Of a DNA stretch of 64,000 nucleotides, positions 26,669 to 34,019 are shown piece after piece. Numbering within the stretch: position 1 is the first letter of the stretch; each line of letters opens with the position of its first letter. The notes under the pieces were generated by a model. The model ran no database searches and was not told the DNA's origin. It was given only the letters and a program-made list of their open reading frames with translations. This stretch comes from Escherichia phage SP22. Location: sequence record LC519489.1; one strand, written 5' to 3'. The position numbers and the translations under genes were made by a program.

Positions 26669-26815
26669 ATTATCTTTGTAGATAAGTTATTAAGCTTACC
26701 TGTGAGTATGCGACCACAAAGGGTGAAATGGTAAATTCTAGATTTAAACCCAACAATGCACATCGCTACAGACCTTAAGCAAGTCTGGGTAGCTTATCTA
26801 CAAAGATAATTTAAT

Positions 26816-26891
26816 GGAAGTGTAGCAGAATGGTGATGCGGCAGACTTTTAATCTGACAGGCGATGGGTTCGAATCCCTCCACTTCTACCA
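26816..26891 (+). tRNA. tRNA-Lys (anticodon TTT)
   Basis: acceptor ggaagtg/cacttct, anticodon loop cttttaa, T-loop ttcgaat, CCA. Confidence 0.65.
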
Positions 26892-26895
26892 ATAT

Positions 26896-26972
26896 GGTTC
26901 AGTCGCAGATAAGGTAATGCAGGGGTTTCATAAGCCCTATGAATGTGGGTTCGATTCCCATCTGAACCTCCA
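26896..26972 (+). tRNA. tRNA with anticodon CAT (elongator Met or Ile-lysidine type)
   Basis: acceptor ggttcag/ctgaacc, anticodon stem ggggt/gccct loop ttcataa, T-loop ttcgatt, CCA. Confidence 0.6.
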
Positions 26973-26973
26973 A

Positions 26974-27049
26974 GCTGGTATAGTTAAGAAGGTTATAACA
27001 CTCCCCTGATAAGGGAACATCGGTGGTTCGATTCCACCTACCAGTACCA
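26974..27049 (+). tRNA. tRNA-Ile (anticodon GAT)
   Basis: acceptor gctggta/taccagt, anticodon loop ctgataa, T-arm ggtgg-ttcgatt-ccacc, CCA. Confidence 0.65.
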
Positions 27050-27064
27050 ATTTCAATAAAGTTG

Positions 27065-27093
27065 TTGACATTGAGATGTGACTACTTTATAGT
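27065..27093 (+). promoter_or_regulatory. sigma70-like promoter (ttgaca 27065-27070, 17 bp, tatagt 27088-27093)
   Basis: consensus hexamers with 17-bp spacer. Confidence 0.55.
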
Positions 27094-27099
27094 AACTGA

Positions 27100-27387
27100 A
27101 AATGATTCAGCATATGTATAATTCAAACACCAATACATGAGCGTTAGACGTAACACAATGTGGGGAAATTTGTTGTACATATTCTGAATAGTTTTCGTTG
27201 CGTAGCGTCTATTTTGCAAATTTAAAATAAATGCAAACGACAATGTTTTTCTGGCAGTAGCTTGATAGGCTAAACACCAGTGAGGTCTTCCAATCCCTCA
27301 TCAAAGAATTTGGCGTACTCGCCCACGGTATGATTAATAAGGTGGGCATCTTTAAGGGCTTTCTAAGAGAGTCTTTAAAGATAATTA
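27100..27387 (+). ncRNA. candidate non-coding transcript downstream of the promoter and upstream of the atypical tRNA-like gene
   Basis: about 290 nt with no ORF of 60 aa or more in any frame, inside the tRNA cluster. Confidence 0.25.
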
Positions 27388-27469
27388 CGGGGCGTATCTC
27401 AGCGGTCTTCTAAACCGCCGTTAACCGAGTAAGTGGAGTATGCGGGTTCGAGTCCTGCCGCCTCGACCA
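27388..27469 (+). tRNA. atypical tRNA-like gene: canonical T-arm and acceptor with CCA, anticodon-like hairpin gcggt-cTTCTaa-accgc (TCT, Arg-type), no canonical D-arm, 23-nt extra region
   Basis: acceptor cggggcg/cgcctcg, T-arm gcggg-ttcgagt-cctgc; only 7 nt between acceptor and hairpin. Confidence 0.4.
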
Positions 27470-27483
27470 ATTTTGGAGAAATC

Positions 27484-27831
27484 ATGAAAACTTGTATTAG
27501 GTGCAAACTTAGCAAGGATGAAAATGATTTCTACATGAAAGATGGTAAGAGAACTCATTCATACTGTAAAAAGTGTGTTAATGAGCAAACCATAGAAAGA
27601 CAAAGAGCACTTAAACTTTCAGCTATTGAGTACAAAGGTGGGGTTTGTCATGATTGTGGTAAAAGGTATCATCCAGCAGTGTATGACTTCCATCATTTGA
27701 ATCCTTCAGAGAAAGATTTTAACATTGGTCATAGAAAAAGTCTGAAGTTCTCTCAAGAACTAAAAGATGAACTTGACAAATGTGTTTTGCTATGTTCAAA
27801 TTGCCATAGGGTAAGACATGCAAAGTATTAG
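27484..27831 (+). CDS. HNH homing endonuclease (paralog of 29214-29627)
   Basis: CxxC...CHDCG...HHLNP...CSNCHRVRH motifs; start set at ATG after SD ggag (track ORF 27433 overlaps the tRNA-like gene). Confidence 0.7.
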   Translation: MKTCIRCKLSKDENDFYMKDGKRTHSYCKKCVNEQTIERQRALKLSAIEYKGGVCHDCGKRYHPAVYDFHHLNPSEKDFNIGHRKSLKFSQELKDELDKCVLLCSNCHRVRHAKY

Positions 27832-27968
27832 TTAGCAGATTGCTTAGACGACCTTATCGGGTCTCCGTGTAAGGAGGTGGTCTGTATCTCATGTTTTCCA
27901 GAACATGTAAATAATCTGAGAAGGGGCTTTACAGTGTTGCGAAAATACGGTAAGCTTCGAATTACAAT

Positions 27969-28051
27969 ATGGGACGATGTTAAGACTCTAAGGCATGAGC
28001 AACGGCCTCCAAAACCGTTTCAAAGGGGTTCAACTCCTCCGTCCCATGCCA
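27969..28051 (+). tRNA. non-canonical tRNA-like element or pseudo-tRNA
   Basis: perfect acceptor atgggac/gtcccat-g-cca and T-loop ttcaact, but anticodon hairpin aacgg-cctccaaaa-ccgtt has a 9-nt loop and there is an about 8-nt insertion before the D-stem. Confidence 0.3.
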
Positions 28052-28064
28052 AAGTCTTATTAGG

Positions 28065-28154
28065 GGTAGGTAGCGGCTAATGGCAGCCAAACAGTCTTGA
28101 AAACTGTTGCCACTGTAGAGATACGGTGAGGGTTCGACTCCTTTACTTACCGCC
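28065..28154 (+). tRNA. tRNA-Ser (anticodon TGA), class II
   Basis: acceptor ggtaggt/acttacc, anticodon stem acagt/actgt loop cttgaaa, long variable arm, T-loop ttcgact. Confidence 0.65.
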
Positions 28155-28422
28155 TAATAAGATTTATACCGTCCATGCTTGCTCGCATTTTCGGTTTATC
28201 CTCGTGTATTGGTTGTACACACTGATAAAGCACCTAGTAGGTGTCACGGAGAAGAGATAATATCAAGCTCTCCAAAGGTTCTAGTCACCGGATTAAACAA
28301 GACTATGCAAAGACCAAATTAGGTCTTTTTAGAGGGCTTCTAAGGTTATTACAGCTTGTTGTGGAACCTTGTTGCTTAGGTTCTTAGAAGTTCTCTAAAA
28401 AGATTTAATGGGAGATTGACAC

Positions 28423-28875
28423 ATGGCACGTAGCAGTTTGACTAAAGATATTCTTGAACCTTTAGTAAAGGATTCAGTATCATTCAGAGAAGTACTTATT
28501 AAGCTTGGGAGAAAACCAGCAGGTGGTTCTCAGTCACATCTAAAGCGTGTTATAGAGAAGTTTGAAATAGACACTTCTCATTTCCTCGGACAAAAGGCTG
28601 GTAAGGTTAAAACTGTACCAAAAAGAAAGCCTGAAGAAATACTAATTCTGCGTGAATCTGGTGAAAGAGCTAGGTCTTCACAACTAAGAAGAGCTTTAAT
28701 AGCCTCTGGTGTCGAATACAAATGCTCTAAATGTGGTCAGTTACCGTATTGGTTGGGTAACCCTCTAACTCTTGATGTTGACCACATTAACGAGAACTGG
28801 TTAGATGATAGAAAAGAGAATCTTCGGTTCTTGTGTCCAAATTGCCACAGTCAATTCTCAAGACATTTGATTTAA
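28423..28875 (+). CDS. HNH homing endonuclease
   Basis: YKCSKCG...DHINENWLDDRKENLRFLCPNCH motif; SD gggag. Confidence 0.65.
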   Translation: MARSSLTKDILEPLVKDSVSFREVLIKLGRKPAGGSQSHLKRVIEKFEIDTSHFLGQKAGKVKTVPKRKPEEILILRESGERARSSQLRRALIASGVEYKCSKCGQLPYWLGNPLTLDVDHINENWLDDRKENLRFLCPNCHSQFSRHLI

Positions 28876-28876
28876 T

Positions 28877-28953
28877 GCACCTATAGCCCAACTGGTAGAG
28901 GCAGCAGACTTAGAATCTGCTCAGTGTGAGTTCGAATCTCTCTAGGTGTACCA
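28877..28953 (+). tRNA. tRNA with anticodon TAG (Leu-type anticodon) but short variable arm
   Basis: acceptor gcaccta/taggtgt-a-cca, anticodon stem gcaga/tctgc loop cttagaa, T-loop ttcgaat. Confidence 0.55.
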
Positions 28954-28960
28954 AATTAAT

Positions 28961-29036
28961 GCAGGTGTAGCAAAATGGTTATGCGGCTGACTCTTAATCA
29001 GTAAGACGATGGGTTCAATTCCCTCCACCTGTACCA
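28961..29036 (+). tRNA. tRNA-Lys (anticodon CTT), paralog of the TTT tRNA
   Basis: acceptor gcaggtg/cacctgt, anticodon loop ctcttaa, T-loop ttcaatt, CCA. Confidence 0.6.
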
Positions 29037-29042
29037 AACATT

Positions 29043-29118
29043 GGGGATGTAGTTTACATGGTTAAAACATAAGTTTTGCAAACTTAAGTACAGGGTTCAA
29101 TTCCCTGCTTCTCCACCA
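29043..29118 (+). tRNA. tRNA-Ala (anticodon TGC)
   Basis: anticodon stem taagt/actta loop tttgcaa, T-arm caggg-ttcaatt-ccctg, CCA. Confidence 0.6.
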
Positions 29119-29124
29119 ATTAGT

Positions 29125-29199
29125 GCATCCATAGTTTAAACGGGAAAATTACAGTCTTCCAAACTGAGGTTGAGGGTTCGATTCCCTCTGGATGCTCCA
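29125..29199 (+). tRNA. tRNA-Gly (anticodon TCC)
   Basis: acceptor gcatcca/tggatgc, anticodon loop cttccaa, T-arm gaggg-ttcgatt-ccctc, CCA. Confidence 0.65.
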
Positions 29200-29213
29200 A
29201 ATTAAGGTGTGAT

Positions 29214-29627
29214 ATGAAAATATGTAGTACTTGCAGAATACCAAAAGATGAAAGCTTATTCCATAAGAATAAGAACAAGAAAGATGGTCTTCAAAGTCAA
29301 TGCAAAGACTGTGCAAGACTTCGTGATGCAAAGAGTTATCAAGCAAATGATAAAAGGAAAGAGGCTATCAAAAGCACTCGTAACTTCAAGAGGGAGTATA
29401 ATAAAACTCTAGCTAGAAGGTACAAAGCTTTATGCAAATGTCATATATGTGGTGAGAAAGAACCAGCTGCACTGGATTTACACCATACAGACCCTTCCCA
29501 GAAAGATTTGAATCCTGCATCACTTTATTCATACTCCACAAAAAGATTAAAAGATGAAATCAGAAAGTGTATCGTCTTGTGTGCTAACTGTCACAGAAAA
29601 GTACACGCTGGTATCATACAAGTTTAA
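29214..29627 (+). CDS. HNH homing endonuclease (paralog of 27484-27831)
   Basis: CSTCR...CKDC...CHICG...HHTDPS...CANCHRKVH. Confidence 0.7.
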   Translation: MKICSTCRIPKDESLFHKNKNKKDGLQSQCKDCARLRDAKSYQANDKRKEAIKSTRNFKREYNKTLARRYKALCKCHICGEKEPAALDLHHTDPSQKDLNPASLYSYSTKRLKDEIRKCIVLCANCHRKVHAGIIQV

Positions 29628-29628
29628 T

Positions 29629-29705
29629 GCTGCTTTCGTATAATTGGCTATTACACATCCCTTGTAAGGATGGAAATGCAGGTTCGAGTCCTGTGAGCAG
29701 CACCA
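29629..29705 (+). tRNA. tRNA-Thr (anticodon TGT)
   Basis: acceptor gctgctt/gagcagc, anticodon stem catcc/ggatg loop cttgtaa, T-loop ttcgagt, CCA. Confidence 0.7.
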
Positions 29706-29801
29706 ATTTAGAGGTCAAGTGAAAGACCGCTTTGAGTCAACTGAAGACCGTAACAAATCCCACGGAGTTGAGTTAGCGGCACAACTTCAGACCTCTTTCA
29801 T
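29706..29801 (+). ncRNA. structured intergenic element with nested inverted repeats between tRNA-Thr and tRNA-Val
   Basis: gaggtc...gacctc, ctgaag...cttcag and ccgt...acgg inverted repeats; contains the gaagaccgt motif. Confidence 0.3.
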
Positions 29802-29876
29802 ACTCGCTTAGTTTATATGGTAAAACATCACCCTTACAAGATGAAGAAAAAGGTTCAAGTCCTTTAGTGAGTACCA
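29802..29876 (+). tRNA. tRNA-Val (anticodon TAC)
   Basis: acceptor actcgct/agtgagt, D-stem gttt/aaac, anticodon loop cttacaa, T-arm aaagg-ttcaagt-ccttt, CCA. Confidence 0.6.
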
Positions 29877-29877
29877 T

Positions 29878-29955
29878 GTTCCAGTATCCCAATTGGCAGA
29901 GGATGCAAGCTCAAACCTTGTACTAGTGACGGTTCGAATCCGTCTTGGAACACCA
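29878..29955 (+). tRNA. tRNA with anticodon CAA (Leu-type anticodon), short variable arm
   Basis: acceptor gttccag/ttggaac, anticodon stem gcaag/cttgt loop ctcaaac, T-arm gacgg-ttcgaat-ccgtc, CCA. Confidence 0.55.
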
Positions 29956-29960
29956 ATTTT

Positions 29961-30036
29961 GCAGGATTAGTTCAAATGGATAGAGCAACAGTCTACGAAG
30001 CTGTTAATAGGGGTTCGAATCCCTTATCCTGCGCCA
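29961..30036 (+). tRNA. tRNA-Arg (anticodon ACG)
   Basis: perfect acceptor gcaggat/atcctgc, D-stem gttc/gagc, anticodon stem acagt/gctgt loop ctacgaa, T-loop ttcgaat, CCA. Confidence 0.75.
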
Positions 30037-30055
30037 ATTTAAAGAGGCTATTTAG

Positions 30056-30613
30056 ATGAGATATTTGAAGTATGCTTCATGGATTTTCTTAGCTTTGTTA
30101 GAACCATTTGCAGCAATCTTAGCAGTTATCTTAGCACCTTTCGTAGTCCCATTCTACAGTGAGAAGAAAGGACACTTACCTTTCGGCTTCAGATGGATGG
30201 AGACATATGACAACCCAATTGATGGTGATAAAGGGCATGTCGAACGATGGGCTAAGATTAGAAAGATTGGCAAGCTTGGTGTCTATATGCAGAGAGTCGG
30301 TTGGCTCTGGAGAAACAAAGCTTATAACTTCTCTTACCATGTGTTAGGAAGAGATGTAAAAGATGTTACTAAGTGGAAAGGCAATATCAACGTAAGTTCT
30401 AACCCTGAAGATAATCAGACAGGTTATCTCCTAATGTGGAACAGCAATGCTTGGGGATTATTCGCTTTTATCCCATCAATTAAAGTCTTTGGTAAACAAT
30501 TTTACTGGAGAATTTATATTGGGTGGAAGCTAAAAAGTGTTGTCCCAGAAGAAAGAGCATTCTCAAGGGAAAGAGTTATGTTGGCATTCTTTATTCATCC
30601 ACTAAGAAAGTAA
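30056..30613 (+). CDS. hypothetical Trp-rich membrane protein encoded inside the tRNA cluster
   Basis: N-terminal hydrophobic segment WIFLALLEPFAAILAVILAPFVVPF. Confidence 0.45.
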   Translation: MRYLKYASWIFLALLEPFAAILAVILAPFVVPFYSEKKGHLPFGFRWMETYDNPIDGDKGHVERWAKIRKIGKLGVYMQRVGWLWRNKAYNFSYHVLGRDVKDVTKWKGNINVSSNPEDNQTGYLLMWNSNAWGLFAFIPSIKVFGKQFYWRIYIGWKLKSVVPEERAFSRERVMLAFFIHPLRK

Positions 30614-30621
30614 AGATTTAA

Positions 30622-30697
30622 AGGGGATTAGTTTACAAGGTTAAAACCTCGGTCTTTGAAATCGAAGAAGTTGGTTCAATTCCAACATCCCCCGCCA
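30622..30697 (+). tRNA. tRNA-Gln (anticodon TTG)
   Basis: anticodon stem tcggt/atcga loop ctttgaa, D-stem gttt/aaac, T-arm gttgg-ttcaatt-ccaac, CCA; A1:C72 unpaired. Confidence 0.6.
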
Positions 30698-30699
30698 AT

Positions 30700-30778
30700 G
30701 CTCCATTACTCCAATTGGCAGAGAGGCCAGACTTAAAATCTGTGTTATGTATCGGTTCGAATCCGATATGGAGTACCA
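30700..30778 (+). tRNA. tRNA with anticodon TAA (Leu-type anticodon), short variable arm
   Basis: acceptor gctccat/atggagt, anticodon loop cttaaaa, T-arm atcgg-ttcgaat-ccgat, CCA. Confidence 0.55.
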
Positions 30779-30783
30779 AATTT

Positions 30784-30859
30784 AGCGGTATAGCATAACT
30801 GGCAATGCAGCAGTCTCTGAAGCTGTCTTATTAAGGTTCAAATCCTTATGCCGCTGCCA
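30784..30859 (+). tRNA. tRNA with anticodon CTG (Gln-type)
   Basis: acceptor agcggta/tgccgct, D-stem gcat/atgc, anticodon loop ctctgaa, T-arm taagg-ttcaaat-cctta, CCA. Confidence 0.55.
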
Positions 30860-30890
30860 CTTCTAAGGGTTCTTACGAGAGTCCTTAAAT

Positions 30891-30966
30891 GTGGCCTTAT
30901 CATAAATGGTAATGACCCATGCTGTGAACATGGTCTATACGGGTTCAAATCCCGTAGGTCACCCCA
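30891..30966 (+). tRNA. tRNA-His (anticodon GTG)
   Basis: acceptor gtggcct/aggtcac, anticodon stem ccatg/catgg loop ctgtgaa, T-loop ttcaaat, CCA. Confidence 0.7.
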
Positions 30967-30971
30967 ATTTA

Positions 30972-31046
30972 TAGTCCAAGTAGCTTATATGGTTAAAGCG
31001 CGTGTCTGAAAAACATGAGAAGAGGGTTCAAATCCCACTGGACTAC
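30972..31046 (+). tRNA. tRNA-Phe (anticodon GAA); 3' CCA not fully encoded
   Basis: acceptor tagtcca/tggacta, anticodon stem cgtgt/acatg loop ctgaaaa, T-loop ttcaaat. Confidence 0.55.
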
Positions 31047-31064
31047 CAATTTCAAAGGTGCTTA

Positions 31065-31799
31065 ATGAAAGAGATGACAGAACAAGGTAAGGAGATTTTT
31101 AATCTCTTAAAAACCGGTAAAGGGTTTTCTAATCCCCTTATTACTGGTGCAGCAGTTCTCGGTGGAACCGTAGCTGCCTCTACATCACTTGTAAGCTCTA
31201 TTAGCTCTGTAACAGACCCTACAATAAAAGATAAGCTTGTTGCTGCTGGACTTACAACAGTCCTGCTTAACAGCTTTACAACGAGTCTGACAAGCACTAC
31301 ATCAACTACCAAAACACTGACAGATTACGGTCAAAAATCTATTGATGAGTTTTCATCACGTATGCAGGTAGCAAAAGGCTATTCTAATGTTATGGGTGCA
31401 GCAGGAGAGCAGGTTGGTTGTACACCATTTAGTGGTATTATGGGTGTTGCTACAGAGTATGGTCAAAAAGCTATTGACACGATTAACAGTGCACTAGATG
31501 GTGTTAATGATGTATTAAGTGACTTACAAGATGCTATTGACAAAGGTCTTGATACTATTTCTGATTTAGCTAACCAAGCTGTTAGTAAGATTAATGAAGG
31601 TATTTCGAAGATTACAGCTTATGCAGATGAAGTTGTGCAGATGATTGAAGAAGAAGCTGCTCTTATTGCAGAGTACCTTAAAACGAATATCAATGGGTTC
31701 TTAGCAGGTATCTTACCAGACTGGTTTGATGATGCTTGTAAAACTGGTGTAATTGATACTATTGCAACACCAGAAATGAAGAACGCATTACAGAAATAA
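31065..31799 (+). CDS. hypothetical Ser/Thr/Ala-rich protein (start set at internal ATG after the tRNA; track ORF 31002 overlaps tRNA-Phe)
   Basis: ORF track with start adjusted. Confidence 0.45.
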   Translation: MKEMTEQGKEIFNLLKTGKGFSNPLITGAAVLGGTVAASTSLVSSISSVTDPTIKDKLVAAGLTTVLLNSFTTSLTSTTSTTKTLTDYGQKSIDEFSSRMQVAKGYSNVMGAAGEQVGCTPFSGIMGVATEYGQKAIDTINSALDGVNDVLSDLQDAIDKGLDTISDLANQAVSKINEGISKITAYADEVVQMIEEEAALIAEYLKTNINGFLAGILPDWFDDACKTGVIDTIATPEMKNALQK

Positions 31800-31800
31800 T

Positions 31801-31893
31801 GGAAGATTAACCCTAAAAGGTAAGGGAGCAGTTTGCTAAACTGCCAGTAGCTGAGAAATCGGTGTACCAGTTCAAGTCTGGTATCTTCCTCCA
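31801..31893 (+). tRNA. tRNA-Ser (anticodon GCT), class II
   Basis: perfect acceptor ggaagat/atcttcc, anticodon stem gcagt/actgc loop ttgctaa, long variable arm, T-arm accag-ttcaagt-ctggt, CCA. Confidence 0.75.
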
Positions 31894-31897
31894 ATTT

Positions 31898-31973
31898 GAA
31901 TCCGTGACAGAAATGGTTATGTGCCTGTCTGCAAAACAGGTTTATAAGGGTTCGAGTCCCTTCGGATTCTCCA
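31898..31973 (+). tRNA. tRNA-Cys (anticodon GCA)
   Basis: perfect acceptor gaatccg/cggattc, anticodon stem cctgt/acagg loop ctgcaaa, T-arm aaggg-ttcgagt-ccctt, CCA. Confidence 0.75.
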
Positions 31974-32010
31974 AGTTATTTTACTCTCTCTCAATTAAAA
32001 TAATAATAAT

Positions 32011-32070
32011 GCCCTGCTATAAGTATTCTTCCTTTCGCTACCGAAGAGTATTTTTAGACAGGGCTTTTTT
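32011..32070 (+). terminator. long hairpin + tttttt closing the tRNA operon
   Basis: gccctg...cagggc followed by U-run. Confidence 0.6.
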
Positions 32071-32135
32071 ACAGAGTTATACTTTATAAGAAGACTTATA
32101 CAGTATGTCTCTGACGTACATTGTGGTTTCTCCTT

Positions 32136-32159
32136 GACGGTCTCTGTACCGTCTTTTTT
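32136..32159 (+). terminator. rho-independent terminator
   Basis: gacggt-ctctgt-accgtc + tttttt. Confidence 0.65.
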
Positions 32160-32195
32160 AAGGGGAAACATGGTTAACTATTTGGAGAAAACATA

Positions 32196-32396
32196 ATGAG
32201 CGAGACCGTTTATAAAGAACTTTACGAAGCTAACAAGAAGCTAGAATTTATGCAGAACACTATCATGGCAATTGCAGACAGATTATCTGTAGCAACAGGT
32301 ATTGATATTCAAGAAGCGTCTATGGATGCACTTCTTGATGCTGTTGATGCAAAGTTCGAAGTTAAGAAAGAAGAGACTGCTACAGACTCTGAATAA
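32196..32396 (+). CDS. hypothetical small acidic protein preceding the terminase gene
   Basis: ORF with SD ggagaaa. Confidence 0.45.
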   Translation: MSETVYKELYEANKKLEFMQNTIMAIADRLSVATGIDIQEASMDALLDAVDAKFEVKKEETATDSE

Positions 32397-32417
32397 TTCT
32401 ATTTGCGGAGGTGCTTA

Positions 32418-34019
32418 ATGGACTTAAATGCTGTTAAGCAGAAGCGAGTGGAAGATGTTAGGAAAGTCCTAGCTGGAGAGTTGGGGCTTTCTGATGAAGT
32501 AAAAGAAATTATCAAATCATTCGGTAAAGACCCCTCTAAATTCCTTCCAACTCAAATTCTGACTTTATTAAGATACACACCAGACCAAGTTAGACTTATC
32601 TTCAAATTGATGACTGATAAGAACTATGTAGCCCCTCAGCCGGGTTCTCAAGAGGTCTTTTTAAATACTAATGCTGACTTGGTTCTCTATGGTGGTGCTG
32701 CTGGTGCTGGTAAGACTGCTGCATTGTTAATGGACTCTTTAAGGTTTATTGAAGACCCTAACTATAATGCTGTATATTTCCGTCGAAATACAACACAGTT
32801 ACAAGGTGGTTTATGGCCTGCTGCAAAGAAACTATTTGGTAAGTTTGGTGGCGTTCCTCACGAGCAGAAGATGACTATCACATTCCCTTCTGGGGCAACT
32901 ATCAAGTTCACCTACCTAGAACTTGAAAAGCACGCTGAAGGTCATCAGGGTATTGAGTACTCAGCTATCTACTTTGACGAAGGTACGCACTTCTCTGCTT
33001 CACAGATTTCATACCTACAGACTCGTCTGCGTTCTGGTGCTGAAGGTGATTCATACATGAAGATTTCTATGAACCCAGATAGAGACCATTTCATTTACGA
33101 TTGGGTAGAACCATTCTTAGATGAAGAAGGTTACCCAGACCCTGAAAAGTGTGGTCGTATCCGTTGGTATGTTATGAACGATGGTGTGATGGTTTCTGAT
33201 TGGGAGAGAGACAAGATTCTTGAAATGTTTCCTCTTGAGATTCCTCAGACATACACCTTCATCTCTGGTACGATTGATGATAACCCAATTCTTGACTTCT
33301 TAGAACCTAAATATCGTGGTAAGTTGGAAAACAACACACCTGTAAACGTTGCAAGACTTCGTTTCGGTAACTGGAAGGCTCGTGCAGAAGGTTCAAACTA
33401 TTGGCAAAGACAATGGTGTGAAATTGTTGATTCACTCCCAGAAGATGTATTCGATGTCAGAGCATGGGACTTAGCAGCAACTTTACCATCTGAGATTAAC
33501 CCTAATCCAGACTGGACAGCAGGTGTTAAGATGGGTAAATCTAAAAAAGACGGTTGCTATTATATCATTGATGTAGTAAGATTTAGAGATAGACCCTCTG
33601 GAGTCGAAACACAAATTAATTTGACTGCTGAAAGTGACGGTAAGCGAACTGGTATTTTTATCCCTCAAGACCCAGGCGCTGCTGGTAAATCCTACGCAAC
33701 ATCCCTCATCAGGAAACTTGCCGAGAAAGGTTATCGAGCAAGAGCTAAACCAACAAATAAAGATAAAGTTACCCGATTTGCGGGGTTTTCTGCTGCTTCT
33801 GAAGCTGGACTTGTAAAAGTCTTGAGAGGTAGTTGGAATGAAGCTTACTTCCAAGAACTTGAAGGCTTTTGTGGTGATGGTAAAACTAAAGATGACCAAG
33901 TGGATGCTACCAGTGATGCTTTCAACAGTCTTAACGAAGTTAAATTATTCAAGCCACCATCAATGGGCGCTCACACAGACTTAGTGAGAGGAAACCCATA
34001 TGAGGGGCTTAGACGTTGA
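32418..34019 (+). CDS. terL: terminase large subunit
   Basis: Walker A-like YGGAAGAGKT and Walker B-like IYFDEG in N-terminal ATPase region, acidic C-terminal nuclease-like region; start set at ATG after SD ggagg; followed by portal candidate. Confidence 0.75.
   Translation: MDLNAVKQKRVEDVRKVLAGELGLSDEVKEIIKSFGKDPSKFLPTQILTLLRYTPDQVRLIFKLMTDKNYVAPQPGSQEVFLNTNADLVLYGGAAGAGKTAALLMDSLRFIEDPNYNAVYFRRNTTQLQGGLWPAAKKLFGKFGGVPHEQKMTITFPSGATIKFTYLELEKHAEGHQGIEYSAIYFDEGTHFSASQISYLQTRLRSGAEGDSYMKISMNPDRDHFIYDWVEPFLDEEGYPDPEKCGRIRWYVMNDGVMVSDWERDKILEMFPLEIPQTYTFISGTIDDNPILDFLEPKYRGKLENNTPVNVARLRFGNWKARAEGSNYWQRQWCEIVDSLPEDVFDVRAWDLAATLPSEINPNPDWTAGVKMGKSKKDGCYYIIDVVRFRDRPSGVETQINLTAESDGKRTGIFIPQDPGAAGKSYATSLIRKLAEKGYRARAKPTNKDKVTRFAGFSAASEAGLVKVLRGSWNEAYFQELEGFCGDGKTKDDQVDATSDAFNSLNEVKLFKPPSMGAHTDLVRGNPYEGLRR

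Follow-up and report, generated by a model that had tools for sequence, protein, structure and literature searches.

We report here that three transfer RNA (tRNA) genes of Escherichia phage SP22 (sequence record LC519489.1), which carry the leucine anticodons UAG, CAA and UAA and a short variable region in place of the long arm that is the hallmark of class-II tRNA-Leu, are probably genuine, functional class-I leucine isoacceptors, most likely charged by the host's leucyl-tRNA synthetase (LeuRS). They lie in a stretch of 64,000 nucleotides (nt) of this phage, called the window from here on. This reading rests on the structure of the genes, on their leucine identity signature, on their conservation and the covariation of their stems, on their distribution and on the leucine meaning of the codons concerned, and from these observations we infer the charging by the host enzyme and a benefit in codon supply. 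By BLAST, the identity of the window DNA to Felix O1-like myoviruses (of Escherichia, Salmonella, Shigella and Citrobacter) amounts to 94-98%; the phage is a Felixounavirus of the Ounavirinae and not a T5-like phage, as its HNH-rich tRNA cluster might have suggested.

The original prediction had described these genes as three tRNAs of 77-79 nt with anticodons TAG, CAA and TAA and variable regions of 5-7 nt, and ARAGORN placed them at exactly the same coordinates without shifting any of the anticodons, with Rfam RF00005 scores that all lie above the gathering score of 29 bits (Table 1). Cloverleaf parsing gave variable regions free of any helix, namely TCAGT (5 nt) in Leu(UAG), ACTAGT (6 nt) in Leu(CAA) and GTTATGT (7 nt) in Leu(UAA); all three have the helix-free variable region of 4-7 nt that defines class I, and because of these lengths none of them was filed as a class-II tRNA-Leu. 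The variable regions of the tRNA-Tyr and of the two tRNA-Ser of the window measure 15, 20 and 21 nt, respectively. The cluster had also been said to lack a class-II tRNA-Leu and a tRNA-Trp, and this held true, since neither a long-armed tRNA-Leu nor a tRNA-Trp was found by ARAGORN in the 64-kb window or by a permissive Rfam scan of positions 24500-33000.

The three genes are also well conserved and consistently named in related phages, whose annotated tRNA sets agree with a leucine assignment. Leu(UAG) is present in identical or almost identical form in about 84 records of Felix O1-like phages, Leu(CAA) recurs at 97% identity or more in about 250 phage records, both being called tRNA-Leu wherever annotated, and Leu(UAA) is found at 95% identity or more in 252 phage records; in Felix O1, wV8 and many other relatives, the public annotation of these genes is tRNA-Leu. 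Leu(CAA) has, in addition, a partial match of 84% identity (query positions 8-64) in Erwinia phage phiEa21-4. Within the window, Leu(UAA) is a paralogue of Leu(CAA), the two having identical D loops (positions 13-22, edit distance 0) and similar acceptor stems.

Apart from the arm, the three bodies carry the complete leucine identity set of the E. coli type. All of them have A73, U8, A14 and A15, the latter with U as the last variable nucleotide, which gives the A15:U48 Levitt pair; all have a D stem of three base pairs with a 13:22 mismatch and an 11-nt D loop of the form N-A-A-Y-Y-G-G-Y-A-G-A, where G18G19 occupy loop positions 6-7 and A20a is placed as in E. coli tRNA-Leu; and all have the T loop TTCGAAT, which permits the tertiary pairs G18:U55, G19:C56 and U54:A58. 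We compared them with 36 distinct E. coli K-12 tRNAs of all 20 isotypes, including all five leucine isoacceptors, which are a sample and not the full complement of that strain. The combined leucine signature was found in six of the six distinct E. coli tRNA-Leu of this set, in none of the 30 other E. coli tRNAs and in none of the 22 other tRNAs of the window, and the D-arm motif taken by itself (NNN-N-AA-YY-GG-Y-A-GA-NNN) separates the sequences just as well (the three genes and 6/6 E. coli tRNA-Leu, against 0/30 and 0/22). These are the elements known to be read by E. coli LeuRS, i.e., A73, A15:U48, G18G19, A20a and the tertiary pairs that link the D loop with the T loop (PMC9976931), with U8:A14 and A15:U48 listed as leucine identity elements in two sources (PMC9976931, PMC6614811); the same enzyme needs neither the anticodon nor the long arm, and tRNA-Leu variants deprived of the arm stay active (PMC9976931).

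Compared with the class-II tRNA-Leu genes of E. coli (leuQPVT, leuU, leuW, leuX and leuZ), the three phage genes share A73, U8:A14, A15:U48, the D arm and the canonical T loop, together with the anticodons of leuW (UAG), leuX (CAA) and leuZ (UAA), and they differ in a variable region of 5-7 nt instead of 13-15 nt, in A instead of G at position 9, C instead of G or A at position 13 and C instead of U at position 32, the overall identity being 52-68%.

A D arm of similar appearance was seen in one further tRNA of the cluster, tRNA-Glu(UUC) (25718-25795, plus strand), whose D arm GAC-AAAATGGTAAA-GTC is leucine-like, with a 3-bp stem and an 11-nt loop, and is very unlike the D arm of E. coli tRNA-Glu recognised by glutamyl-tRNA synthetase (GluRS); the 5' acceptor strand of this tRNA, GTTCCAG, is the same as that of tRNA-Leu(CAA).

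It had been implied that short-arm leucine tRNAs are a peculiarity of this phage, which turned out to be wrong: they are widespread in phages and native to many Actinomycetota. Erwinia phage phiEa21-4 (Kolesnikvirus) has three of them (CAA, AAG and UAA, 77-78 nt), with the same D arm as those of the window and entirely different stems, and it carries a tRNA-Trp beside them, so the missing tRNA-Trp of the SP22 cluster, which the original prediction had noted alongside the leucine bodies, is unrelated to them. With Leu(UAG) of the window as a BLAST query, tRNA-Leu genes of about 80% identity appeared in Mycobacterium, Streptomyces, Cronobacter, Enterococcus and Pseudomonas phages; Cronobacter phage CR9 has leucine genes of 78 and 80 nt, and mycobacteriophage QBert has three of 74-76 nt.

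To these cases we added three collection scans, each giving at least 120 loci, whose counts are samples and not censuses. In the first, a pattern for short-arm, UUR-reading leucine tRNAs was applied to the viral sequences of IMG/VR, and in the at least 120 loci obtained ARAGORN recognised at least 178 short-arm leucine genes, at least 128 of them distinct, with the anticodons CAA, UAA, UAG, GAG, CAG and AAG. A73, which the pattern does not require, was present in all 128 distinct sequences among the matches listed, where the long arm was kept by 118 of 121 tRNA-Ser and by 46 of 46 tRNA-Tyr; at least 14 loci had short and long leucine genes side by side. The second viral scan was seeded with a generic T arm followed by A73-CCA (GGTTCGAATCC-N10-ACCA), which involves no selection for the leucine type, although it may favour some lineages. 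Among the matches listed, it gave 91 tRNA-Leu, of which 34 are short, 55 long and 2 intermediate (20 short and 44 long when the tRNAs that themselves match the seed are left aside), and not one of 37 tRNA-Ser or 19 tRNA-Tyr is short. In the IMG/VR sample, the short-arm type thus makes up about one third of the tRNA-Leu genes, and the loss of the arm in the viral loci listed is specific to leucine, tRNA-Ser (118/121 and 37/37) and tRNA-Tyr keeping theirs.

In 155 distinct viral short-arm leucine tRNAs, pairing reaches 90-100% at all 20 stem positions, 19 of which use four to six pair types, G53:C61 alone being near-invariant, as compared with 56% pairing when the partners are shuffled; we suggest keeping in mind that the stem assignment of ARAGORN by itself favours pairing somewhat. 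A73 is found in 155/155 and U48 in 152/155 members, and in the subset that was not picked by the D-loop pattern the values are 78/78 and 75/78. Judging from these alignments, the short-arm leucine family is under purifying selection, with covarying stems.

The third scan, of bacterial genomes with the first pattern (at least 120 loci), returned mostly chromosomal genes that stand alone in Actinomycetota, with Nocardia, Mycobacterium, Gordonia, Arthrobacter and Bifidobacterium among the genera: 102 of the 120 genome loci listed hold a single tRNA, a solitary short-arm tRNA-Leu, in most cases with the anticodon UAA and in most cases actinobacterial. A few matches, from cyanobacteria and some other phyla, are long tRNA arrays, and in those with 24-26 genes (L299, L358 and L365) the leucine tRNAs are all short-armed and the tRNA-Ser and tRNA-Tyr long-armed. 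No Enterobacterales were present among the 80 genome matches listed, and the closest of the listed matches, mostly from Actinomycetota, are 80% identical to Leu(UAG) of the window.

Two sub-types can be told apart. The main one, to which all three window genes belong, has U8-A9, C13 and the D loop CAAYYGGYAGA, its variable loop being, for example, NCAGU or AUGUU; the second has U8-G9, G13 as in class-II tRNA-Leu, the D loop GAAUUGGYAUA and the variable loop GUUUU, and includes a gene of the T5-like phage DT57C. Among the matches listed, position 9 is G in 53 of 55 long and A in 23 of 34 short leucine genes. In one pair of viral contigs, the acceptor stem and T arm are common to a short Leu(UAA) (L153) and a long Leu(UAA) (L202), the arm being the main difference, and because of this pair and of the two sub-types, the long arm seems to have been lost more than once. 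In T5, Leu(UAG) is a class-II tRNA of 85 nt located between an Ala and a Ser gene (L138, 3625-3709), and in DT57C the same slot holds a class-I Leu(UAG) of 77 nt (L382, 4997-5073). The homing endonuclease gene hegC adjoins tRNA-Leu(UAG) in T5.

At a single position of the Felix O1-like phages, there are likewise two unrelated short-arm Leu(UAG) alleles. The allele of the window resembles Leu(AAG) of phiEa21-4; the alternative one, present in Felix O1 (L001, 4428-4505) and in Salmonella phage Si3 (L017, 4546-4623), has U8-G9 and a T arm as in Leu(UAG) of DT57C, together with an irregular D arm. In the window, the clearest HNH open reading frame (ORF) of the cluster ends 2 nt before Leu(UAG), and for this reason the data suggest that the allele was replaced by homing. 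Si3 also has a chimeric tRNA (L017, 5124-5202), which joins the 5' part of Leu(CAA) and the 3' part of Leu(UAA) through the CAATTGGCAGAG that both genes have; this fusion removes the intervening Arg, ORF and Gln(UUG) genes and leaves six of the seven acceptor pairs.

Class-I tRNA-Leu as such was already known from animal mitochondria and from Streptomyces, and the annotation of the Felix O1 genes as tRNA-Leu has long been in place. The type-I tRNA-Leu(CAA) of Streptomyces coelicolor (PMC6614811) is similar to the phage genes in combining a short variable loop with a leucine anticodon in a bacterial setting, and the likeness to chromosomal genes of Actinomycetota extends to U8-A9, NCC-CAATTGGYAGA-GGN, C13, the variable loop NCAGT and A73. 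The actinobacterial genes, however, are chromosomal and belong to high-G+C hosts, the LeuRS of Streptomyces having an adapted leucine-specific domain, whereas those of the window are carried by a phage of Enterobacteriaceae, bacteria with tRNA-Leu genes of class II only. The tRNA-Leu of animal mitochondria share the class-I shape, the leucine anticodons and the identity elements A73 and A14 (PMC9976931) but their D and T loops are degenerate and a mitochondrial LeuRS is dedicated to them, in contrast with the fully canonical loops of the window genes, and we found no indication of common descent with them. In its dense, same-strand arrangement with homing endonuclease genes between the tRNAs, the cluster is similar to those of T4 and T5 and to horizontally transferred bacterial tRNA arrays (L-arrays), and T4 and T5 were considered as precedents for the short arm and rejected, given that their tRNA-Leu, of 87 and 85 nt, belong to class II.

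In the literature, a passing remark concerns the short variable loop of a tRNA-Leu(TAG) in a mycobacterial array (PMC6582537), a current review describes the long arm as universal except in animal mitochondria (PMC9976931), and the Streptomyces case is described as a rarity that relies on a specialised LeuRS (PMC6614811). Our literature search returned no dedicated description of phage class-I tRNA-Leu beyond that remark and the Streptomyces study, and in it we found no published account of how frequent this type is in phages, of enterobacterial phages that carry it or of the E. coli-type identity set that it retains.

Most likely, the three genes are transcribed, processed and then charged with leucine by the host's own LeuRS. 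The enterobacterial enzyme would read A73 and the corner formed by the D and T loops, with U8:A14, A15:U48, the G18G19 register and A20a; the anticodons UAA and CAA would then decode UUA and UUG, and UAG would decode CUA and probably other CUN codons. The short arm would be a tolerated and heritable simplification, lost only in that class-II type whose synthetase can do without it, because LeuRS, as opposed to seryl-tRNA synthetase (SerRS) and bacterial tyrosyl-tRNA synthetase (TyrRS), does not need the arm. The genes would form part of a widespread pool of short-arm tRNA-Leu in circulation between the tRNA clusters of phages and the tRNA arrays of bacteria, a movement probably aided by the interspersed homing endonucleases.

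The original prediction had left a choice between unusual leucine isoacceptors and bodies charged with another amino acid, and of these two the former is supported, on the grounds of the identity set and the covariation, and the latter is disfavoured. In its strongest form, the latter would mean that UUA, UUG and CUA are partly recoded in the phage proteins, and all that speaks for it is the unusual class-I shape and the absence of tRNA-Trp from the cluster. The identity elements of Ala and Ser, the other two types whose synthetases do not depend on the anticodon, and of Trp are missing: the 3:70 pair is A:T, T:A and T:A in Leu(UAG), Leu(CAA) and Leu(UAA), the G3:U70 of tRNA-Ala being present in the tRNA-Ala of the window, so the three genes are not of the Ala type; with neither a long arm nor G73 they are not of the Ser type; and the CCA anticodon and G73 of tRNA-Trp are lacking as well. 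Most of the remaining synthetases depend chiefly on the anticodon, as is well established (reviewed in PMC9976931), and the anticodons they require are absent, while the leucine-specific D arm is common to all three genes.

The codons themselves point the same way. We aligned four conserved genes with their phiEa21-4 orthologues (1401 aligned residues, 61% identity), a comparison that shows leucine codons to be mutually equivalent between two phages that both carry short-arm leucine tRNAs, and in which window TTA faces leucine at 23 of 34 sites, TTG at 5 of 10 and CTA at 6 of 9, much as CTT (27/38), CTC (4/7) and CTG (9/11) do. The phiEa21-4 leucine codons that face TTA, TTG or CTA are often CTG, CTT or CTC, and the non-leucine residues found opposite leucine codons of the window are mainly I, V, M and F, i.e., the three codons stand at leucine or aliphatic sites and are exchanged for CUG, CUU and CUC as any other leucine codon is. 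In the thymidylate synthase ThyA, which has too few UUG and CUA codons to be telling by itself, TTA of the window falls opposite L, V, I or Y of the E. coli protein. Because TTA, TTG and CTA align to leucine like the other leucine codons, recoding of UUA, UUG and CUA is very unlikely, and we give hardly any credence to the idea that these bodies carry another amino acid.

The codon usage of the window agrees with a supply role in the case of two of the three genes. In this phage of 39% G+C, TTA and CTA make up 30% and 12% of the leucine codons of the window, where a small E. coli sample (25 ORFs) has 16% and 6%, and the share of CTG falls from 36% in that sample to 13% in the window. TTA and CTA are thus enriched about twofold, and UUG, whose phage to E. 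coli ratio is 0.8, is not, so that the CAA gene is poorly explained by codon supply. This is one of several points that weigh against functional leucine isoacceptors charged by the host. The transcript of the S. coelicolor type-I tRNA-Leu(CAA) was not charged by E. coli LeuRS, which is described as charging type II only, type-I charging being attributed to an adapted leucine-specific domain of LeuRS (Fan et al. 2019, PMC6614811), and the window tRNAs share precisely this actinobacterial type-I architecture, with up to 80% identity to chromosomal class-I tRNA-Leu. In the genes themselves, Leu(UAG) and Leu(UAA) have a G1:U72 wobble, Leu(UAG) has a U50:U64 mismatch and A37 where E. coli CUN-reading tRNA-Leu has G37, and the Leu(UAG) allele of Si3 is labelled tRNA-OTHER/pseudo by the NCBI pipeline.

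Much of this could be turned into a different explanation, in which the RNAs are uncharged or poorly charged by enterobacterial LeuRS and are either decaying passengers of a mobile cluster or non-decoding molecules such as decoys. The failure of E. coli LeuRS on the Streptomyces substrate (PMC6614811), the weakened pairs in the acceptor stems of two genes and in the T stem of one, the label given to some of the relatives' alleles and the fact that Si3 tolerates a deletion fusing the CAA and UAA genes would all agree with it. It has to contend, however, with near-identity across about 250 phage genomes in a cluster whose intergenic and ORF content is mosaic, with an encoded CCA, with the retention of three such genes with different stems in phiEa21-4, and with the charging of arm-less E. 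coli tRNA-Leu variants by E. coli LeuRS (PMC9976931). Covariation is also seen in the stems, and even very divergent members of the family keep A73, U48 and the identity positions of the D loop unchanged, which is hard to explain without a LeuRS that reads them; we therefore hold uncharged passengers or decoys to be improbable.

A further idea concerns only the reason for the short arm and would add to host-charged leucine isoacceptors instead of replacing them, since the tRNAs would still be charged with leucine. According to it, the short arm is an adaptation by which the tRNAs of phages, and those of mobile arrays, escape a nuclease or toxin, encoded by the host or by a phage, or a phage shut-off factor, that recognises host tRNA-Leu by the long arm, and leucine decoding continues while the host tRNA-Leu is destroyed. 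A host tRNA-Leu is cleaved upon T-even infection, although our literature search for T4 reports of this found none. Counter-defence roles have been proposed in print for phage tRNAs in general, and the recurrence of arm loss, in L153 and L202, in T5 and DT57C and in the two unrelated Leu(UAG) alleles of the Felix O1-like phages, would suggest selection rather than drift. Yet an arm-specific tRNA-Leu nuclease was neither identified in our analysis nor found in the literature search, the same type of tRNA is solitary in many chromosomes of Actinomycetota, where a counter-defence role is not obvious, the at least 14 viral loci with short and long leucine genes together do not fit it well, and neutral loss of a dispensable arm accounts for the data equally well. 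We consider an escape of this kind unlikely, if worth keeping in mind more than the uncharged RNAs, and retain leucine isoacceptors charged by the host LeuRS as the preferred explanation.

The three genes belong to a cluster in which all of the tRNAs found by ARAGORN in the 64-kb window lie on one strand, with small ORFs between them (Table 1). In the ORFs examined, which cover part of the window, we noticed no gene for LeuRS. Directly upstream of the cluster, an ORF of 471 amino acids (23948-25363, plus strand) has DUF2828 and DUF7788 domains, and its counterpart in Felix O1 is annotated as 'RNA-binding protein'.

Table 1. Class-I tRNA-Leu genes of the SP22 window and features of the surrounding tRNA cluster
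Feature	Position	Strand	Details
Class-I tRNA-Leu(UAG)	28877-28953	+	77 nt including encoded CCA; ARAGORN; Rfam RF00005 57.3 bits; layout GCACCTA-TA-GCC-CAACTGGTAGA-GGC-A-GCAGA-CTTAGAA-TCTGC-TCAGT-GTGAG-TTCGAAT-CTCTC-TAGGTGT-A-CCA
Class-I tRNA-Leu(CAA)	29878-29955	+	78 nt including encoded CCA; ARAGORN; Rfam RF00005 43.6 bits; layout GTTCCAG-TA-TCC-CAATTGGCAGA-GGA-T-GCAAG-CTCAAAC-CTTGT-ACTAGT-GACGG-TTCGAAT-CCGTC-TTGGAAC-A-CCA
Class-I tRNA-Leu(UAA)	30700-30778	+	79 nt including encoded CCA; ARAGORN; Rfam RF00005 47.5 bits; layout GCTCCAT-TA-CTC-CAATTGGCAGA-GAG-G-CCAGA-CTTAAAA-TCTGT-GTTATGT-ATCGG-TTCGAAT-CCGAT-ATGGAGT-A-CCA
tRNA cluster	25634-31973	+	25 tRNAs with small HNH-endonuclease-type ORFs between them
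Clearest HNH ORF	28423-28875		HNH domain, E 3.7e-4, 21.0 bits, just below the Pfam cut-off of 21.4
ORF with Cys-rich HNH-like motif	27433-27831		Counterpart in Felix O1 annotated HNH endonuclease
ORF with Cys-rich HNH-like motif	29214-29627		Counterpart in Felix O1 annotated HNH endonuclease
DUF7338 ORF	30056-30613		Within the tRNA cluster

Some other parts of the cluster deserve a brief description. After tRNA-Ile, the gap 27098-27469 (plus strand) gives weak Rfam matches of 22 bits to tmRNA and tmRNA_permuted, and ARAGORN calls neither a tRNA nor a transfer-messenger RNA (tmRNA) there. It contains a frame resembling a tmRNA tag (27232-27267, GCA AAC GAC AAT GTT TTT CTG GCA GTA GCT TGA TAG, i.e., ANDNVFLAVA followed by two stop codons) and, after it, a contiguous tRNA-like element (27388-27469), in which an acceptor stem, a T arm, ACCA and a UCU-bearing anticodon-like stem-loop can be recognised, but no D arm; Felix O1 has identical copies of both, and Si3 has an identical tag-like segment. 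This region could be a phage RNA akin to tmRNA, with an unusual topology, or else the remains of a tRNA-Arg(UCU) with an ORF beside it by chance. The element 27388-27469 was also considered as a hidden class-II tRNA-Leu and rejected, given its UCU anticodon-like loop and the lack of a D arm. Besides this, tRNA-Ser(UGA) (28065-28154) ends in GCC at its 3' end, with no encoded CCA; tRNA-Phe (30973-31048) has an irregular junction between acceptor and T stem, its start differing by one base between ARAGORN and Rfam; and the 458-nt gap between tRNA-Asp and tRNA-Lys holds a sub-threshold tRNA-like match (26551-26615, 24.7 bits).

In summary, for the SP22 window these genes are leucine tRNAs and no evidence of recoding, and their meaning reaches beyond this phage. 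Short-arm tRNA-Leu are common in phages, including those of E. coli and Salmonella, whose own tRNA-Leu are long-armed, which points in the opposite direction to the view that this type is a rarity. If it is true that enterobacterial LeuRS efficiently charges natural class-I tRNA-Leu, this would contradict the published view of the Streptomyces enzyme as the sole dual prokaryotic LeuRS. The finding also matters for annotation, given that pipelines sometimes call such genes tRNA-OTHER or pseudogene, and it may be useful for the engineering of compact leucine tRNAs. The short-arm genes of phages provide a natural test set for the dispensability of the arm in vivo, for the action of E. coli LeuRS on type-I substrates and for the reasons why tRNA-Ser and tRNA-Tyr keep their arms.

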